From Candidatus Eremiobacteria bacterium (GTDB lineage: Bacteria; Vulcanimicrobiota; Vulcanimicrobiia; Vulcanimicrobiales; Vulcanimicrobiaceae): 64,000 nucleotides of DNA. Within the stretch, counting starts at the first letter, position 1. Each line of letters opens with the position of its first letter. Shown here one piece after another: positions 17,901-23,900 of this stretch. A program made the position numbers. The stretch spans positions 128,001 through 192,000 of the forward strand of contig CAVWUU010000002.1 of the NCBI GenBank assembly GCA_963758295.1, in the 5' to 3' direction.

Positions 17901-20900
17901 GCGGAAGTACTTCAAGCGCTCTTCGACCTCGTCTTCGATCGAGATGATCGCGCGGCGCAGCTTCTCGTCCGGCGTGATGAAATGTTTTGCCGGAAAGATC
18001 AACAGCTCGTCCTTGCTCTCGACGTACTCGCCCGTCATGAGGTTGACGACATTGATGGCGTCGATCTCGTCACCGAAAAATTCGATGCGGTGCACCAGCT
18101 CTTCGTCGACGCCCACGAATTCGAGCACGTCGCCGCGCACGCGGAAGGTGCCGCGCACAAGGTTGAGGTCGTTGCGGCGGTACTGCATGTCCACGAGCTT
18201 GCGCAAGAACGCGTCGCGGTTATATTCCTCGCCGACTTTGATGCGAGCCGACATCTCCATGTAGTCCGAAGGCGAGCCTAAGCCGTAGATGCACGACACC
18301 GAAGCCACGATCAGCGTATCGGGCCGGGTGAGCAACGACTGCGTAGTCGAATGACGCAAGCGTTCGATCTCGTCGTTGATCGAGCTGTCCTTTTCGATGT
18401 ACGTGTCGGTGGAAGGTACGTACGCTTCGGGCTGATAGTAGTCGAAGTACGAGACGAAATACTCGACGGCATTGTTCGGGAAGAACTCGCGGAACTCGGC
18501 ACACAGCTGAGCGGCAAGCGTCTTGTTGTGGCAAAGCACGAGCGTAGGCTTCTGGACGAGCTCAATAACCCGCGCCATTGCCATGGTTTTGCCACTGCCC
18601 GTTACGCCGAGCAACGTCTGAGCGCGGTCACCGCGCAGAACGCCCTGGGCCAGGGCGTCGGTAGCGCGGGGCTGGTCGCCGGCGAGCTTGTACGGAGAAA
18701 CGAGTTCGAACTTCGGCATGGTGCGGTACTTCGACACAGTGCGCGGCCACTCGGTTTCGGCCCGGGCGCCCGCAGCCGCTTTTGTAGCACTCCGACGCCC
18801 TGACGGCTGCCTGCATTCAAGGTGTTTCCGCGCGGAATGGGCGAACCTCACAGCGTCCCCTCGCACACTACGGAGAAACTTCCCGTTGAGCCACAACCCC
18901 CTGGTCTTTAGCGGCAGTTCGAACCCGGCTTTGGCCGAAGAAATCGCCAAGCGCCTGAAGCTGCACGTCGGCAAGGCGTTGGTTTCCAAGTTCAAAAACG
19001 AAGAGACCCGCATCGAGATCCAAGAGAACGTGCGCGGCTCCGAAGTCTTCGTGGTGCAATCGATCTGCAAAGCGCCCAACGGCAACGGCGTGAACGATGC
19101 CGTAATGGAGCTGCTGCTGATGATCGACGCCTTGCGTCGCGCGTCGGCAGCGCGCATTACCGCCGTAATGCCGTACTACGGCTACGCGAAGCAGGACAAG
19201 AAGACCAAAGGTCGCGAGCCGATCTCCGCCAAGGTTCTCGCGAACATGCTGAAGATCTCCGGCGCCAAGCGCATCGTGACGATGGATCTGCATGCCGCCC
19301 AAATTCAGGGCTTCTTCGATCAGCCGGTCGACAATCTGATGGCGCTGCCCACGCTGTGCAATTATTTGAAGAAAGAGGGCTTGTGCGACCAGCGCGTTGT
19401 GGTGGTTTCACCCGATGCCGGCGGCGTGCATCGCGCCGAACTCTTCGCGAAGCGCCTGAATAGCTCGCTCGCCATCGTTTTCAAGCGGCGCCCGGAGCCC
19501 GACGTTTCCGAAGTGACCGATATCGTCGGAGACGTCAAGGGGAAGATCGCCGTCATCGTCGACGACATGATTTCTACGGGCGGCACGCTGGCGAAAGCGG
19601 CCGAAGCGATCAAGGCGCGCGGCGCCACGCAGGTTTATACGGTCGCGACTCATGGTATCTTCGCTGGTGAAGCGATCGAGGTGCTCGAGCAATCGGAAAT
19701 CGAGCGCGTGATTGTAACCAACACGATCCCGCTGCCGGATGTGGATAAACATCCGAAATTCGTGCAACTCTCCATCGCTCAAACGTTCGCCGAAACGATC
19801 ATGCGGATCACGACGAATCGTTCTGTATCGGAGCTCTTCAACAGTGAGGACGGGCCGCGCCCTAGCGAACCGGTTCCCGCTCCGGAACCGGCGGCCGTCT
19901 AGTCCTCTCGATCTCGGAGGTTAGCGTTCAGGAATGGCCAGCAAAGAACAGGTACTTACAATCGAACGCCGGGAACGCACCGGCACCAGCAGCGCGCACC
20001 GTTTGCGCGCCGACGGCAAGATTCCGGGCGTTCTGTACGGACACGGCACGGCGCCGATTCACCTAGCCTTTGATGCGCGCACCTTCACCGATATGCTCCA
20101 ACACGGCAACGCGCTCGGCGTGCTCACGCTGAGCATGAACGGCAAGAAATCCGACACGGCGATGGTTCGAGAGATTCAGCGCCATCCGGTGACGCACCGC
20201 ATCGAACACGTCGATCTGCAACGCGTGTCGGCGCACGAAGCGGTGCACGCAAAGGTTCCCGTCGCGACCATCGGCACGCCGCGGGGCGTGCGTGATTTCG
20301 GCGGCGTCATGGAAGTGCTGCTGCATGAAGTCGAAGTCGAAGGACCGGTCGACGAACTGCCGGCGCAGGTGGAAATCGACGTCGCAGATCTGGGCATCCA
20401 TCAACACGCGAGCGCCGGCGACATTACCCTTCCCAAGCACTTCAAGCTGCTGACCGCTGCCGATACGATTATCGTCTCGGTCGATGCGTCGAAGACGGCG
20501 CGCCTGCTCGAGGAAGCCGAAACCGGCGCCCCGGCCGAAGAAACGCAACCCGAACTCATCGGGAAGCCGGAGGGCACAGAATAGCCAGCCCCGCTCCATG
20601 CCTGATCGTTGGATTGGGCAATCCCGGCAAAGAGTACGAAAGAACCCGGCACAATGCCGGGTTCATGGTTGTCGACCACTTGGCACAGCGCTACGGGATC
20701 TCGTCATGGAAGAACAAGGACAGCGCACGGCAAGCTTTTGACTCGTCGCGCCGGGTCGTGCTCGTGCAGCCCACGTCGTACATGAACCTCAGCGGAACCC
20801 CGGTGCGGCTCATTTCATCCTGGTACCGGACGCCTCCCGAAGAGATCCTCGTGATCGTCGATGAGATGGATTTGCCGTTCGGGGCGCTTCGCATGCGCCC

Positions 20901-23900
20901 GTTCGGCGGACACGGGGGCCACAACGGCCTGCGTTCGATTATCGCCACCGTCGGCGATCGTTTCCCGCGCCTGCGCGTAGGCGTGGGGCGGCCGCAGTTC
21001 GACACCATCGACCACGTTCTGAGCCCCTTCAGCGCCGAAGAGACGAAGGCGCTCCCGGACGTCGTCGCCGCGGCCGCAGAAGGCGCCGATCTGTGGCGCG
21101 AACATGGAATGGAACGCGCCATGCAATACGTTAATAATTGGAAACTCTGAGCTGGGTACATCCGATAGTACAAATAAGGAGGTGAGCTGCCTCGCAAGGA
21201 TTCACCGGCAAAACCTTCGTCGTCCGCGTTGACGACGCTACAGCCCACGACGCAAGCGCCACGCTTGTAGACGATCTTTACGTGATGGCCGAGCGCGAAG
21301 TGCACCCAATTGTGGTTGCGCCCGATCCGCAAGCCGCACGTGCCATCGTCCGTGCCATCAACCGCAGCACCAACGTCGCCGTCGCCCTAAGCGGCTCGGA
21401 CGCTGCGCTTCTTCCACACACGCCAAACGGCATCGGCCGCGTGCAGCGGGGCATTCTCGACACGCTGACCGCGGCCGGCTACATTCCGGTCGTTTCACCG
21501 ACGGCGTTCGCCATCTTTGCCGATCGCGATGCCAACGTCGCCGCCGACGACGTTGCGGCGGCGATTGCAAAGGCTTGCGAAGCCGCGCGAGCGATCTTTT
21601 TTCATCGCGCAGGGGGCGTTCCAGATCCCGAAACCAACGCCGTAATCAACGAACTAACGCCGTCGGAAGCGCTCGCATTGGCGGACGACGAGCGTATCCC
21701 ATTCGATCTGCGTCTCGCAATTCGTGCGGCGGCGCTTGGCGTTCGCGGGGGAATTCCCGCCGCGCAAATTGTGGACGGACGCGTGGCGCATGCAACGATC
21801 GTCGAGCTGCTCACCACGCAGCATCTCGGAACGCAAGTCGTCGGCGGACTCGTGTTTGCGGCTTGAGTTCGTGCGTTACGGACAGCCGCTCGGAACGTGA
21901 TTGAGCGCAGCGATTCGGTCGCCGGCAGGCGGAATCGACGAGAGAAACCACCGCGACGCCATCCCCGGGCACGTTTCATCCAGGTGTTGATCGGTTGACC
22001 GCACGACCGCGCGTATCGCCGAATCCGGATCGGCCGTTAAGGCGATCGCATAGCGATCGGCGTTCCACGTCATCTTGCGCAAAATCGCGTTGTCGATGGG
22101 TGCAACGAGAATGTAGACGCAGCCCAGCAACGCCGCAACGAGCGCCAGGCGCGCGATAGGATCGTCGTCGCGTCTGAACCCGATTCTATCCGCGATAAAT
22201 ACCGCAAGCGCGATGCCGAAGATCACAAGCAGCGCGTTATATGCCGCGACGCGCATCGGATCGTTTGCCGCCACCTCGCCCAATTCGTGCGCAACGATGA
22301 AGCGCAGTTCGCCGAGCGTTGCGCTAGCCACGACGCCTTGCGTCAGAACGATCCGGCGAGTCGGTCCAAGGCCTTCAACGATCGCGCCGGTTTGCGATCC
22401 ATCGGAACGGCGGTCGATGACGATCGGCGCCGTTTGATGCGCCGCGGTGCGCAACGGCTCGAAAGCCGCGGAAAACGAGGCGGGCAAGGGCTTTTGTTCG
22501 CGTAGAGACGGCGAACCGAAATACGGCTCGACGTATGACACGAGAAAGCTTCCGGCGACGATCGCAAGCATCGTGTAGATGTACCATTGGTGCGTGCGGT
22601 CGACGAGCCATAAGACAAAGGCGACCACGACGCCCGCAATCACCATCGCGAGCAACGTATTCAACAGCCACGTAATCGACCAGCTGCGAATGAGCACGCT
22701 GGAAATGCCCATCACGCGGCCGACGCGGAATACGTAAAAGGCGGGAATCAGTGCAGCTAAGCGCGCTATGAACACGAGGGCCGCGCCGAAGAGAAACCGG
22801 ACGTAGATTTCGTTTCTGAGGCCGTTCCGTAGGCGGTCGCGGAGTTTCGCCGCGGCGCCCGATTGCCAAAAATAGGCAAGCACGAGCACTTGAAGGACGA
22901 TCGACGCAAACCAACCCGGCAACATCCAGCGCGCGAGACGCTGCGCCGCTATTTGCCTATCGGGATCCACCAGTTCGATTGCCGGTTGATGCTCGAGCTG
23001 CGCCGCCTGGAGGCTATTAACGCGCCGGTCGAGCCCATTCGGGCGCGCAATGTCGGCCCGCGCGCAAACGGGAACAAGCGCGCCGCCGCCAAGCAGCACC
23101 AATACCACGACGAGCAATAGGCGGCGTAAGACCGTCATGTGCCAGCTTTTCGCCGCCGGCCTCCCATAGCTTCCCTAACGATAGATGGAAAACGTCGTTC
23201 CGTTAACAGCGAATGAGACGCGGTCCCTTCCCGTGCGCTTGCTGTGATACATTGCCGCGTCGGCGACCTCCAATAGCTCGCTCGCCGAGCGCGCGTCATA
23301 GGGAAACGTTGCGACGCCGATACTTGCCGTGACGCCCGCCGGTACGGTGAACTTATGACGCCGGACGTCATCGCACAGGGCCTGGGCGCGCTCGATCGCC
23401 AGCGTCTTTTGCGCGTCGGAGATCAACGCACAGAACTCATCGCCGCCGTTGCGTCCGACGAGGTCCACTTCCGCAACGGTGTGCGCGCGAATGAGGCCGG
23501 CCATGGCTTGGAGGACCGTATCCCCCGCCGCGTGCCCGTACTCGTCGTTCACGGTCTTGAAACGATCGGTGTCGATGAACCACAACGTAAAGGTCTTATG
23601 CTGGCTCAAGCGGGCGCGATTGAGTTCTTCCGCGAGCCGGTTGCGAAACGCGCGAGGCGTGAGCAATCCGGTTAATCCATCGTAAGTTGCATCTGCTTTG
23701 TCGGCTTCCCGTTCCAACGCTAGCGCGTACGGCGACGTCGCGTGTTCGATGGTGCGGACGATCGCGTCTTCTTCGGCAATAGCGCAGCGCGCGGAAGAGA
23801 CATAAATCACGGCGCGCAGATTCGTTCCGTCGTGCATGGGAACCGCCAATCCGCCTCGGTCGGTCGGAAGAACGACGCCGTCCCTTCCCGATTCGCGATG

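Follow-up and report, generated by a model that had tools for sequence, protein, structure and literature searches.

The window analysed here, the whole 64,000-nucleotide stretch of a Candidatus Eremiobacteria contig, contains the junction between rplY and pth as well as infC (Table 1), and yielded no Rfam matches. The gene upstream of the junction is one we take to be rplY, an assignment that draws on the RplY Pfam domains of a fused homologue (P0001) and also on its sequence family. Read from the candidate ATA, the pth frame continues as ASPAPCLIVGLGNPG. PF01195 positions 1-183 align to Pth residues 8-185, placing Pfam position 1 at residue 8, which also corresponds to TIGR00447 position 2. 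No ATG, GTG or TTG occurs in the 40 codons upstream of the ATA, and calling pth from the TTG at 20614 removes the first strand of Pth. The duplex energy of the GGAGGG motif with the 16S rRNA tail of this genome is -10.0 kcal/mol. An earlier note on this genome had described pth as lacking a canonical codon before its conserved N-terminal residues, with an ATA on the rplY stop, and this description holds for the window, where the ATA lies behind a good Shine-Dalgarno (SD) sequence. The gene that follows pth, presumably argB-like, has an in-frame TGA three codons above its apparent TCG start; most relatives have ATG, GTG or TTG at that position, and a base error is possible.

Table 1 Positions of the junction features and of infC within the window
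Feature	Position	Strand	Remarks
rplY (bL25/Ctc)	19934..20584	+	ends GAA TAG; stop (20582-20584) overlaps pth start
SD sequence GGAGGG inside rplY	20569..20574	+	6 nt spacer to ATA
Candidate pth start codon ATA	20581..20583	+	ATAG overlap with rplY stop, -1 frame
pth, peptidyl-tRNA hydrolase	20581..21150	+	189 aa counted from ATA; PF01195, TIGR00447
TTG within GLGNPG of pth	20614..20616	+	first canonical codon below ATA; gene caller's pick
SD sequence of next gene, AAGGAGGTGA	21176..21185	+	perfect; -16.6 kcal/mol
Gene after pth	21192..21866	+	apparent TCG start
infC (IF3)	58840..59497	+	AGGAG SD sequence; ATA start at 58853

The pth junction among relatives

A canonical pth start was absent from 32 of 43 loci in the class, compared with none of 23 loci from other classes of the phylum and none of the 79 loci of a broad control set, placing the reported pattern beyond chance. 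Ten switches between canonical and non-canonical starts were counted. The frame of pth relative to rplY is -1 in 26 of the 43 loci, 0 in 16 and +1 in one, and has changed at least 12 times across the tree. Relative to the rplY stop, ATA at -4 or ATC at -7 was found in 21 of 25 loci where the overlap frame is that of pth (-1), as opposed to 3 of 16 elsewhere. In the same comparison, Glu-ending rplY genes use GAA in 11 of 14 loci versus 1 of 6, and the SD sequence of the overlap codon reaches -4.5 kcal/mol in 19 of 25 loci versus 4 of 16. The pth loci are kin and not independent; well-supported branches provide only six independent pairs, which score 4.4 for the association and 0 against it (median p 0.125). 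Of 189 ATGA starts, 42% attain this SD cut-off, as do 14% of 3252 internal codons. In frame-0 loci, CTG or TTG often stands among the first three codons past the rplY stop; one locus (L014) carries an in-frame TAA immediately upstream of the ATA, and in four loci GTA or CTA is the sole candidate at the overlap. Within the 20 kb surrounding pth, one non-pth gene of 294 scored survived inspection, and uvrB, which adjoins pth, has a canonical start in 21 of 21 loci.

Other genes and the genomic frequency of candidate near-cognate starts

The best-conserved case is mreC, which starts at ATC (20 loci) or ATT (five loci) in the class, always behind an SD sequence (25 of 25 loci, median -10.5 kcal/mol) and without overlap, compared with a canonical start in 22 of 23 loci outside the class. 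The ATC site in this genome is as first described. Seven of the 25 loci have an in-frame stop 4-16 codons above the start with no canonical codon between, and 17 have a GTG 2-3 codons above the ATC, lying inside the SD sequence. The phoH gene likewise has an SD sequence and no overlap, with CTG and GTG interchanging at the same position among relatives. The earlier claim that such starts lie mostly at the upstream stop applies to pth, ugtP, ymdB, murJ, queA and xth, all of which start at or near it, but not to mreC or phoH; since these two carry an SD sequence without overlap, the shared trait is a weak codon with an SD sequence rather than the overlap itself.

The ugtP (TAA/ATC) and ymdB (CTG/TGA) sites also agree with the earlier description, and no usable canonical start lies above the conserved N-terminus in nine of nine ymdB and nine of 11 ugtP loci. 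Codons were exchanged at the same position in ugtP and xth (both ATC/GTG), a glycosyltransferase gene (CTG/ATG/GTG) and parA (CTG/TTG), and near-cognate and canonical codons also interchange at one position in ymdB and queA. GTA or CTA is the sole overlap candidate for hflX of this genome, as well as in one locus of ugtP and two of ymdB. Several sites in this genome have no SD sequence, namely those of ymdB (-2.0 kcal/mol), queA (-0.6), hflX (-2.0) and the glycosyltransferase gene. The murJ ATT/TAA site is present, corrected here to a 5 nt overlap in the +1 frame. A later ATG had been reported in two of seven murJ relatives, but an in-frame ATG at residue 27 occurs both here and in 10 of 11 family relatives, which makes murJ a weaker case than the others.

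Some of the cases confined to this genome stem from indel errors in its assembly. For tsf and prmC the canonical start lies one frame off, and pknB and one G006 gene were also dropped as indel errors. For pspB, sua5 and hflX, relatives are mostly canonical or too few, leaving them as single-genome candidates. Based on an unbiased ortholog sample, near-cognate starts were found in 12 of 560 conserved genes (~2%). This sample replaced early pairwise screens in which shadow frames, indels and the conservation of upstream genes had obscured any signal; comparisons of this genome with outgroups, 38 of them scored, were too few. No SD enrichment before ATA, ATT, ATC or CTG codons near coding onsets was found genome-wide beyond that of other codons, and the genome has 189 ATGA, 126 GTGA and 35 TTGA overlaps. 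The proposal of routine reinitiation on non-canonical starts is therefore too strong as regards "routine", while near-cognate initiation itself has good support.

Interpretation and competing explanations

We consider it fairly likely that about 2% of conserved genes in this class of bacteria are translated from weak near-cognate codons with the help of SD sequences, probably by reinitiation at overlaps. Constant members would be pth, mreC, ugtP, ymdB and probably murJ, using ATA, ATC, ATT and CTG and apparently GTA or CTA in a few loci. A normal initiator tRNA would read these codons while the SD sequence keeps the ribosome positioned; at codons that overlap or come after an upstream stop, the just-terminated ribosome would most likely restart, and mreC and phoH would start de novo. 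The likely effect would be low, IF3-sensitive output. Near-cognate initiation is well supported by conservation, by swaps with ATG, GTG or TTG and by SD placement, and termination-reinitiation at the overlap cases is plausible. Counting against this reading are the kinship of the pth loci, the loci with GTA or CTA only, the sites lacking an SD sequence, the lack of genome-wide SD enrichment, the single further gene that survived inspection around pth and the ATA/ATT starts still kept by infC. Judged from these comparisons, pth, mreC and other core genes seem to have long kept weak non-standard starts across a large set of soil bacteria that are uncultured.

The near-cognate starts could be real and yet all depend on ordinary de novo initiation guided by SD sequences, with the overlaps as a by-product of compact operons. 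We regard this as unlikely, even though mreC and phoH carry SD sequences without overlap and the overlap codons of pth have an SD sequence more often than ATGA overlaps do. The ymdB, queA, hflX and glycosyltransferase genes lack an SD sequence here, the candidate codon remains at the stop through changes of the pth frame, and most canonical starts that overlap a stop and reinitiate likewise have an SD sequence in front, according to one report (PMC6728339).

It is improbable that the proteins begin at a later canonical codon (the pth TTG in GLGNPG, the murJ ATG at residue 27), or at one lying far back in the preceding gene, with the conserved upstream residues left untranslated. Starting murJ at residue 27 would cost only eight modelled positions, but the PxLRxV motif of murJ follows a GTG in two relatives and another relative (G024) lacks Met27. 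The corresponding Leu codon of pth is TTG in only a few relatives, a later start would strip 19-42 residues from the first modelled elements of ugtP, ymdB and xth, and the GTGs above the mreC ATC, which could also serve as starts, have poor SD sequences of their own.

A -1 frameshift or stop-codon readthrough producing fusion proteins such as RplY-Pth is very unlikely. The residues before the Pth core are variable and Pro/Ala-rich, and the protein collection contains the family-like P0001, an in-frame RplY-Pth protein of 61% identity, along with eight further RplY-Pth fusions (40-44% identity) among 55 matches. The four fusions examined are, however, single-member clusters, and P0001 apparently changes frame just before the usual stop, as an indel error would. 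The repeated flips of the junction frame, together with the lack of a slippery X XXY YYZ site in all 26 of the -1 loci, disfavour frameshifting; the stop is retained in every frame-0 locus, and mreC and phoH lack an upstream fusion partner.

Least probable is that assembly errors removed or shifted the true start codons. This assembly contains many frameshifts (rpoB, pcrA, dxs, recG and cheA, besides tsf and prmC), and such errors may account for single-genome cases, including pspB, sua5, the TCG gene and part of the 12 of 560, but separate genomes agree on the conserved genes (pth 32/43, mreC 25/25, ymdB 9/9, ugtP 9/11), for which this explanation is refuted. Editing of AUA to AUI in the mRNA is ruled out by reasoning, since it cannot account for ATC, ATT or CTG.

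Comparison with known systems and the initiation machinery

In the accessible portions of the sources cited here, ATA, ATC, ATT and CTG give 1-2% of AUG output in E. coli (10.1101/063800) and ~10% behind extended SD sequences in S. aureus (PMC13009471). E. coli has two confirmed genes, the autoregulated infC (AUU/AUA) and pcnB (AUU) (10.1101/063800; PMC2830850). The present cases resemble these in having a weak near-cognate start on a conserved gene, and infC here starts at ATA too, but at least eight more genes are involved per genome, many lie at stop overlaps and the codon varies among relatives. Four peptide-backed genes are described in Deinococcus, including dnaA (ATC), rpsL (CTG) and Deide_03051 (CTG) (PMC2830850); these are similar in that a GC-rich phylum has core genes whose ATC or CTG start is conserved throughout a lineage, mreC here being a case of the same kind, and the Deinococcus rate may be within a few-fold of that found here. 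The genes differ, and the portion of that paper available makes no mention of stop-codon overlaps. In S. aureus, ccpN (AUA), cvfC1 (AUU) and citZ (AUA) start behind extended SD sequences, with footprints and reporters for four sites (PMC13009471). A strong SD sequence offsets a weak codon there, as it would for mreC; the present candidate set comprises more genes, overlap geometry and apparent GTA/CTA starts. Termination-reinitiation, known from ATGA and TRATG overlaps and sensitive to IF3 in E. coli (PMC6728339; PMC2268962), shares the -4 and -1 geometry and the SD sequence inside the upstream gene; the codons described in the parts of those sources at hand are canonical, unlike the ATA, ATC, ATT and CTG found here, where -7 and -5 geometries also occur. 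A literature search found no conserved non-AUG starts on pth or mreC. Gene callers would shorten or miss such genes throughout a class of abundant soil bacteria, and the pth junction offers a natural experiment on the start-codon strictness of reinitiating ribosomes and on why Pth is kept low.

No changes were found in the initiator tRNA, where tRNA-fMet keeps three G-C pairs, or in the anti-SD sequence, the 16S tail being normal. Neither loss of RsmA or RsmD (both families present in five of five genomes, RsmD split in this one) nor a change in the uS9 tail (SKR in four of four found, uS9 not being found in this 82% complete genome) was detected. In IF3 (E. coli numbering), R25, Q33, R/K66 and Y75 are kept, while position 68, which is M or L in all 24 loci scored elsewhere, is G, A, S or D in every one of 27 loci from two families and V in the third, and all 28 loci have L at position 73, the two linker changes counting as one event. 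This class-wide change is a lead only as a cause of the near-cognate starts.

It is doubtful, but conceivable, that the altered linker (68 and 73, beside Y75) loosened start-codon proofreading, such that terminating ribosomes restart on almost any NUN codon at a stop, including the doubly mismatched GUA and CUA, with pth, mreC, ugtP, murJ and ymdB as an IF3-sensitive set. If so, translation quality control and envelope growth would be tied to the level of an initiation factor, beyond infC itself. The IF3 changes are directly testable in E. coli. The abstract of one study suggests that IF3 should reject codons such as GTA and CTA (PMC10158994). All 27 class loci of infC keep ATA or ATT as the start, so discrimination by IF3 seems to persist.

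The proposed pth start and its frame relative to rplY

No ATG, GTG or TTG occurs in the pth frame within 40 codons upstream of an ATA that the stop codon of rplY overlaps, and this frame stays open over 85 codons upstream of that stop. A GGAGGG motif precedes the ATA with a spacer of 6 nt. The first canonical codon downstream encodes the Leu of GLGNPG, and Pfam position 1 and TIGR00447 position 2 both correspond to pth residue 8, upstream of it. Coordinates are listed in the table.

Counting any ATG, GTG or TTG in the open frame up to 30 codons upstream of GLGNPG as canonical, 32 of 43 class loci have none and 11 have one. 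This sample comprises 40 loci of the family (including the genome under study), a named Candidatus Cybelea record, nested within the family in our tree, and one locus each from two sister families; family and class denote the kinship groups compared. A canonical start was found in all 23 loci of the phylum's other classes (TTG 13, ATG 8, GTG 2) and in 79/79 wide-control loci from named genomes (Firmicutes, Chloroflexota, Planctomycetota, Verrucomicrobiota and others), one of which is of the same phylum and may duplicate one of the 23. The control scan covered 80 pth loci, the eightieth being the Cybelea locus counted with the class; 14 control rows and one other-class row fell outside the motif match and were scored by hand from coordinates. 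Genomes marked as unpublished supplied three of the five pth loci with ATC at -7 (L010, L017, L021) and one with ATA (L012). The pth start is weak phylum-wide, with ATG in only 3/43 class loci versus 8/23 outside the class; among the first 65 wide-control loci, 44 have ATG.

At an overlap codon the stop dictates the second base (T), as the earlier note had cautioned, and also the third (A); pth loci were therefore compared by frame. Relative to rplY, pth lies in frame -1 in 26 class loci, 0 in 16 and +1 in one. Where the stop is TAA or TAG, 21/25 loci of the -1 frame have ATA at -4 or ATC at -7, versus 3/16 others at the same positions. Where rplY ends in Glu, GAA is used in 11/14 versus 1/6 (background in the genome, 40 GAA versus 31 GAG), and a Shine-Dalgarno sequence (SD) of -4.5 kcal/mol or lower stands upstream of the overlap codon in 19/25 versus 4/16. 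In the genome under study, the same SD threshold is reached at 42% of 189 ATGA overlaps and 14% of 3252 internal ATH/CTG codons. Loci in frame 0 frequently carry CTG or TTG at most three codons downstream of the stop. Fisher tests on the frame contrasts gave 6e-5, 0.018 and 0.003 on loci that are non-independent kin. The pth tree requires at least 12 changes of frame and at least 10 of canonical state; independent pairs on well-supported branches gave 4.4 with, 0 against and 1.6 unchanged (median p 0.125), so that the association is not significant after control for kinship.

Locations of the features discussed (window positions unless a contig is named)
Feature	Position	Strand	Remark
rplY	19934-20584	+	directly upstream of pth
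rplY stop	20582-20584	+	TAG
pth	20581-21150	+	peptidyl-tRNA hydrolase
pth ATA	20581-20583	+	in pth frame
First downstream canonical codon	20614	+	TTG
Gene after pth	21176-21194		SD, then TCG
infC	58840-59497	+	ATA start at 58853
IF3 linker changes	58853-59497		also L414-L440
ATA candidate	C1:39888	-	signal-peptide protein
ATA candidate	C4:876110	-	WYL protein
ATA candidate	C4:1227961	-	small unknown protein
ATA candidate	C4:198766	+	histidine phosphatase pspB
Indel-split genes	C4 near 45800, 95730, 561524, 825267		
Indel-split genes	C3 near 71218, 175802, 274279, 278900		

Probable near-cognate starts in other genes

The start sites proposed in the earlier note for ugtP, murJ, ymdB and mreC are as it described. 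The cleanest case is mreC, which involves no stop overlap: ATC (20) or ATT (5) precedes the first conserved residue in 25/25 class loci, all with an SD (median -10.5 kcal/mol), and in seven an in-frame stop lies 4-16 codons upstream with no canonical codon. In 17/25 a GTG lies 2-3 codons upstream, where it forms part of the SD; its own SD is poor. One locus has ATG nine codons upstream. Outside the class 22/23 mreC loci are canonical, the exception (L299, genome G041) having ATA or CTG after GAGAGG. Two mreC/infC loci are from G100, a genome marked unpublished.

For ugtP, ATC or ATT shares the final base of the stop in 9/12 family loci; the others have GTG at exactly that position, TTG, or only GTA with an SD. 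Seven orthologues from other classes were scored, all of them canonical; another was truncated at the end of its contig, and weaker matches resembling paralogs were left out. Excluding one 38% paralog, ymdB lacks a canonical codon in 9/9 family orthologues (ATA 4, CTA 2, CTG 1, ATC at -7 1, other frame 1) and has ATG in 4/4 outside the family. For murJ, ATT in CATTAR is found here and in 9/11 relatives, and in the other two GTG precedes the same PxLRxV motif. However, this genome and 10/11 relatives also carry an in-frame ATG at residue 27. Since this ATG is widespread and both GTG loci also use CAT, murJ is weaker than pth and ugtP.

Seven further genes were checked in five test relatives. 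CTG without a canonical codon was found for queA in 3/5, CTG with an SD upstream for phoH in 2/5, and CTG for a glycosyltransferase in 1/5 (ambiguous in another); hflX has ATC or CTG in 2/5, with a canonical codon 10-15 codons further upstream, within the upstream gene. Relatives are canonical for xth (2/2 found, with GTG and ATG where the genome under study has ATC and CTG), sua5 (1/1) and pspB (2/2 distant matches).

Frequency of the trait and single-genome anomalies

Evenly spaced 20-kb samples, 400 kb from each of two relatives, were aligned to the genome under study, and 280/466 best pairs passed filters on identity, coverage, frame and edge. Split genes (14 side-flags), shadow frames with a negative coding score and, after manual inspection, two indel cases were then removed. 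No canonical start precedes the conserved coding sequence in 12/560 gene sides (2.1%, interval 1.1-3.7%), four in the genome under study, six in G006 and two in G024. A similar screen of the 79 control loci, weak in that it covers pth neighbourhoods and not random DNA, flagged 5/422 genes, all artefacts on inspection; on 21 class pth neighbourhoods, with 294 genes scored, just one gene besides pth remained. This rate, the lack of population-level SD enrichment before near-cognate codons in the genome, and its many canonical overlaps (189 ATGA, 126 GTGA, 35 TTGA, 81 ATG at -1) indicate that non-canonical starts are gene-specific and a small minority.

Many core genes in this assembly are split by single-base indels, and start anomalies seen in this genome only thus call for caution; we take the split genes to be tsf, prmC, rpoB, pknB, dxs, pcrA, recG and rsmD. 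Four more ATA candidates were noted; the signal-peptide protein has an in-frame stop three codons upstream, and G024 has ATC at the same place in the small unknown protein. The TCG after a perfect SD in the gene following pth is either a real second-position mismatch start or a base error; most relatives have ATG, GTG or TTG, and roughly the same place shows ACG in L007, CTG in L022 and ATT or ACG in L003.

Fusion proteins, precedents and the initiation machinery

Frameshifting or readthrough would yield RplY-Pth fusions, and a search for longer proteins returned 55 matches, nine with both domains: P0001, a family-like in-frame fusion from a close relative, and eight from other lineages. However, a slippery heptamer occurs in 0/26 pth loci of the -1 frame and every class locus retains the rplY stop, while P0001 switches frame just upstream of the usual stop, with the overlap Ile read. 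P0001 and three other fusions looked up are single-member clusters, and we read these four as putative indel errors.

The missing canonical codons, the conservation, the codon swaps and the SD placement are direct observations, and the pattern is real, conserved and moderately surprising. We infer that normal fMet-tRNA would initiate at the weak codons, through reinitiation where they overlap a stop and through de novo initiation in mreC and phoH, probably with low output. Earlier work describes two confirmed E. coli genes with such starts, AUA/AUC/AUU/CUG giving 1-2% of AUG (10.1101/063800), four Deinococcus genes including dnaA (ATC) and rpsL (CTG) (PMC2830850), and four S. aureus sites at ~10% of AUG (PMC13009471); overlaps with SDs are described in PMC6728339, and reviews are available (PMC13515050, PMC12548453). 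The present cases share the sequence features of those in Deinococcus and S. aureus and would work alike. In a literature search that covered subscription papers sparsely, we found no such report on Eremiobacterota start codons, pth coupling or mreC ATC; the genes involved, class-wide spread, overlap geometry and repeated switching appear to be new.

No change was apparent in tRNA-fMet, the 16S tail, RsmA, RsmD or uS9. Aligned to a 180-residue solved chain (E. coli numbering), IF3, an excess of which reduces reinitiation according to PMC2268962, retains R25, Q33, R/K66 and Y75, residues linked to start-codon scrutiny in PMC9723500 and PMC7145577. Position 68 (the Met68 site) is G/A/S/D in 27/27 loci of two families, V in a third, and M/L in 24/24 scored other-class loci (two more unmatched); position 73 (the Phe73 site) is Leu in 28/28 class loci and mostly aromatic elsewhere in the phylum. 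This linker change, a single evolutionary event, is only a lead for relaxed initiation. The infC gene keeps its own ATA/ATT start in 27/27 loci, which suggests that IF3 start-codon discrimination persists. Some loci fit only GTA or CTA, codons that IF3 would be expected to reject (PMC10158994) and that the proposed mechanism does not explain, among them ugtP in G024 and pth in L051 and L404 (GTA then KLVAGLGNPG, SD -8.5 to -8.8 kcal/mol). In other classes, four infC loci (L074, L076, L078, L081) have an apparent ACG or CTG start, not ATT/ATA.
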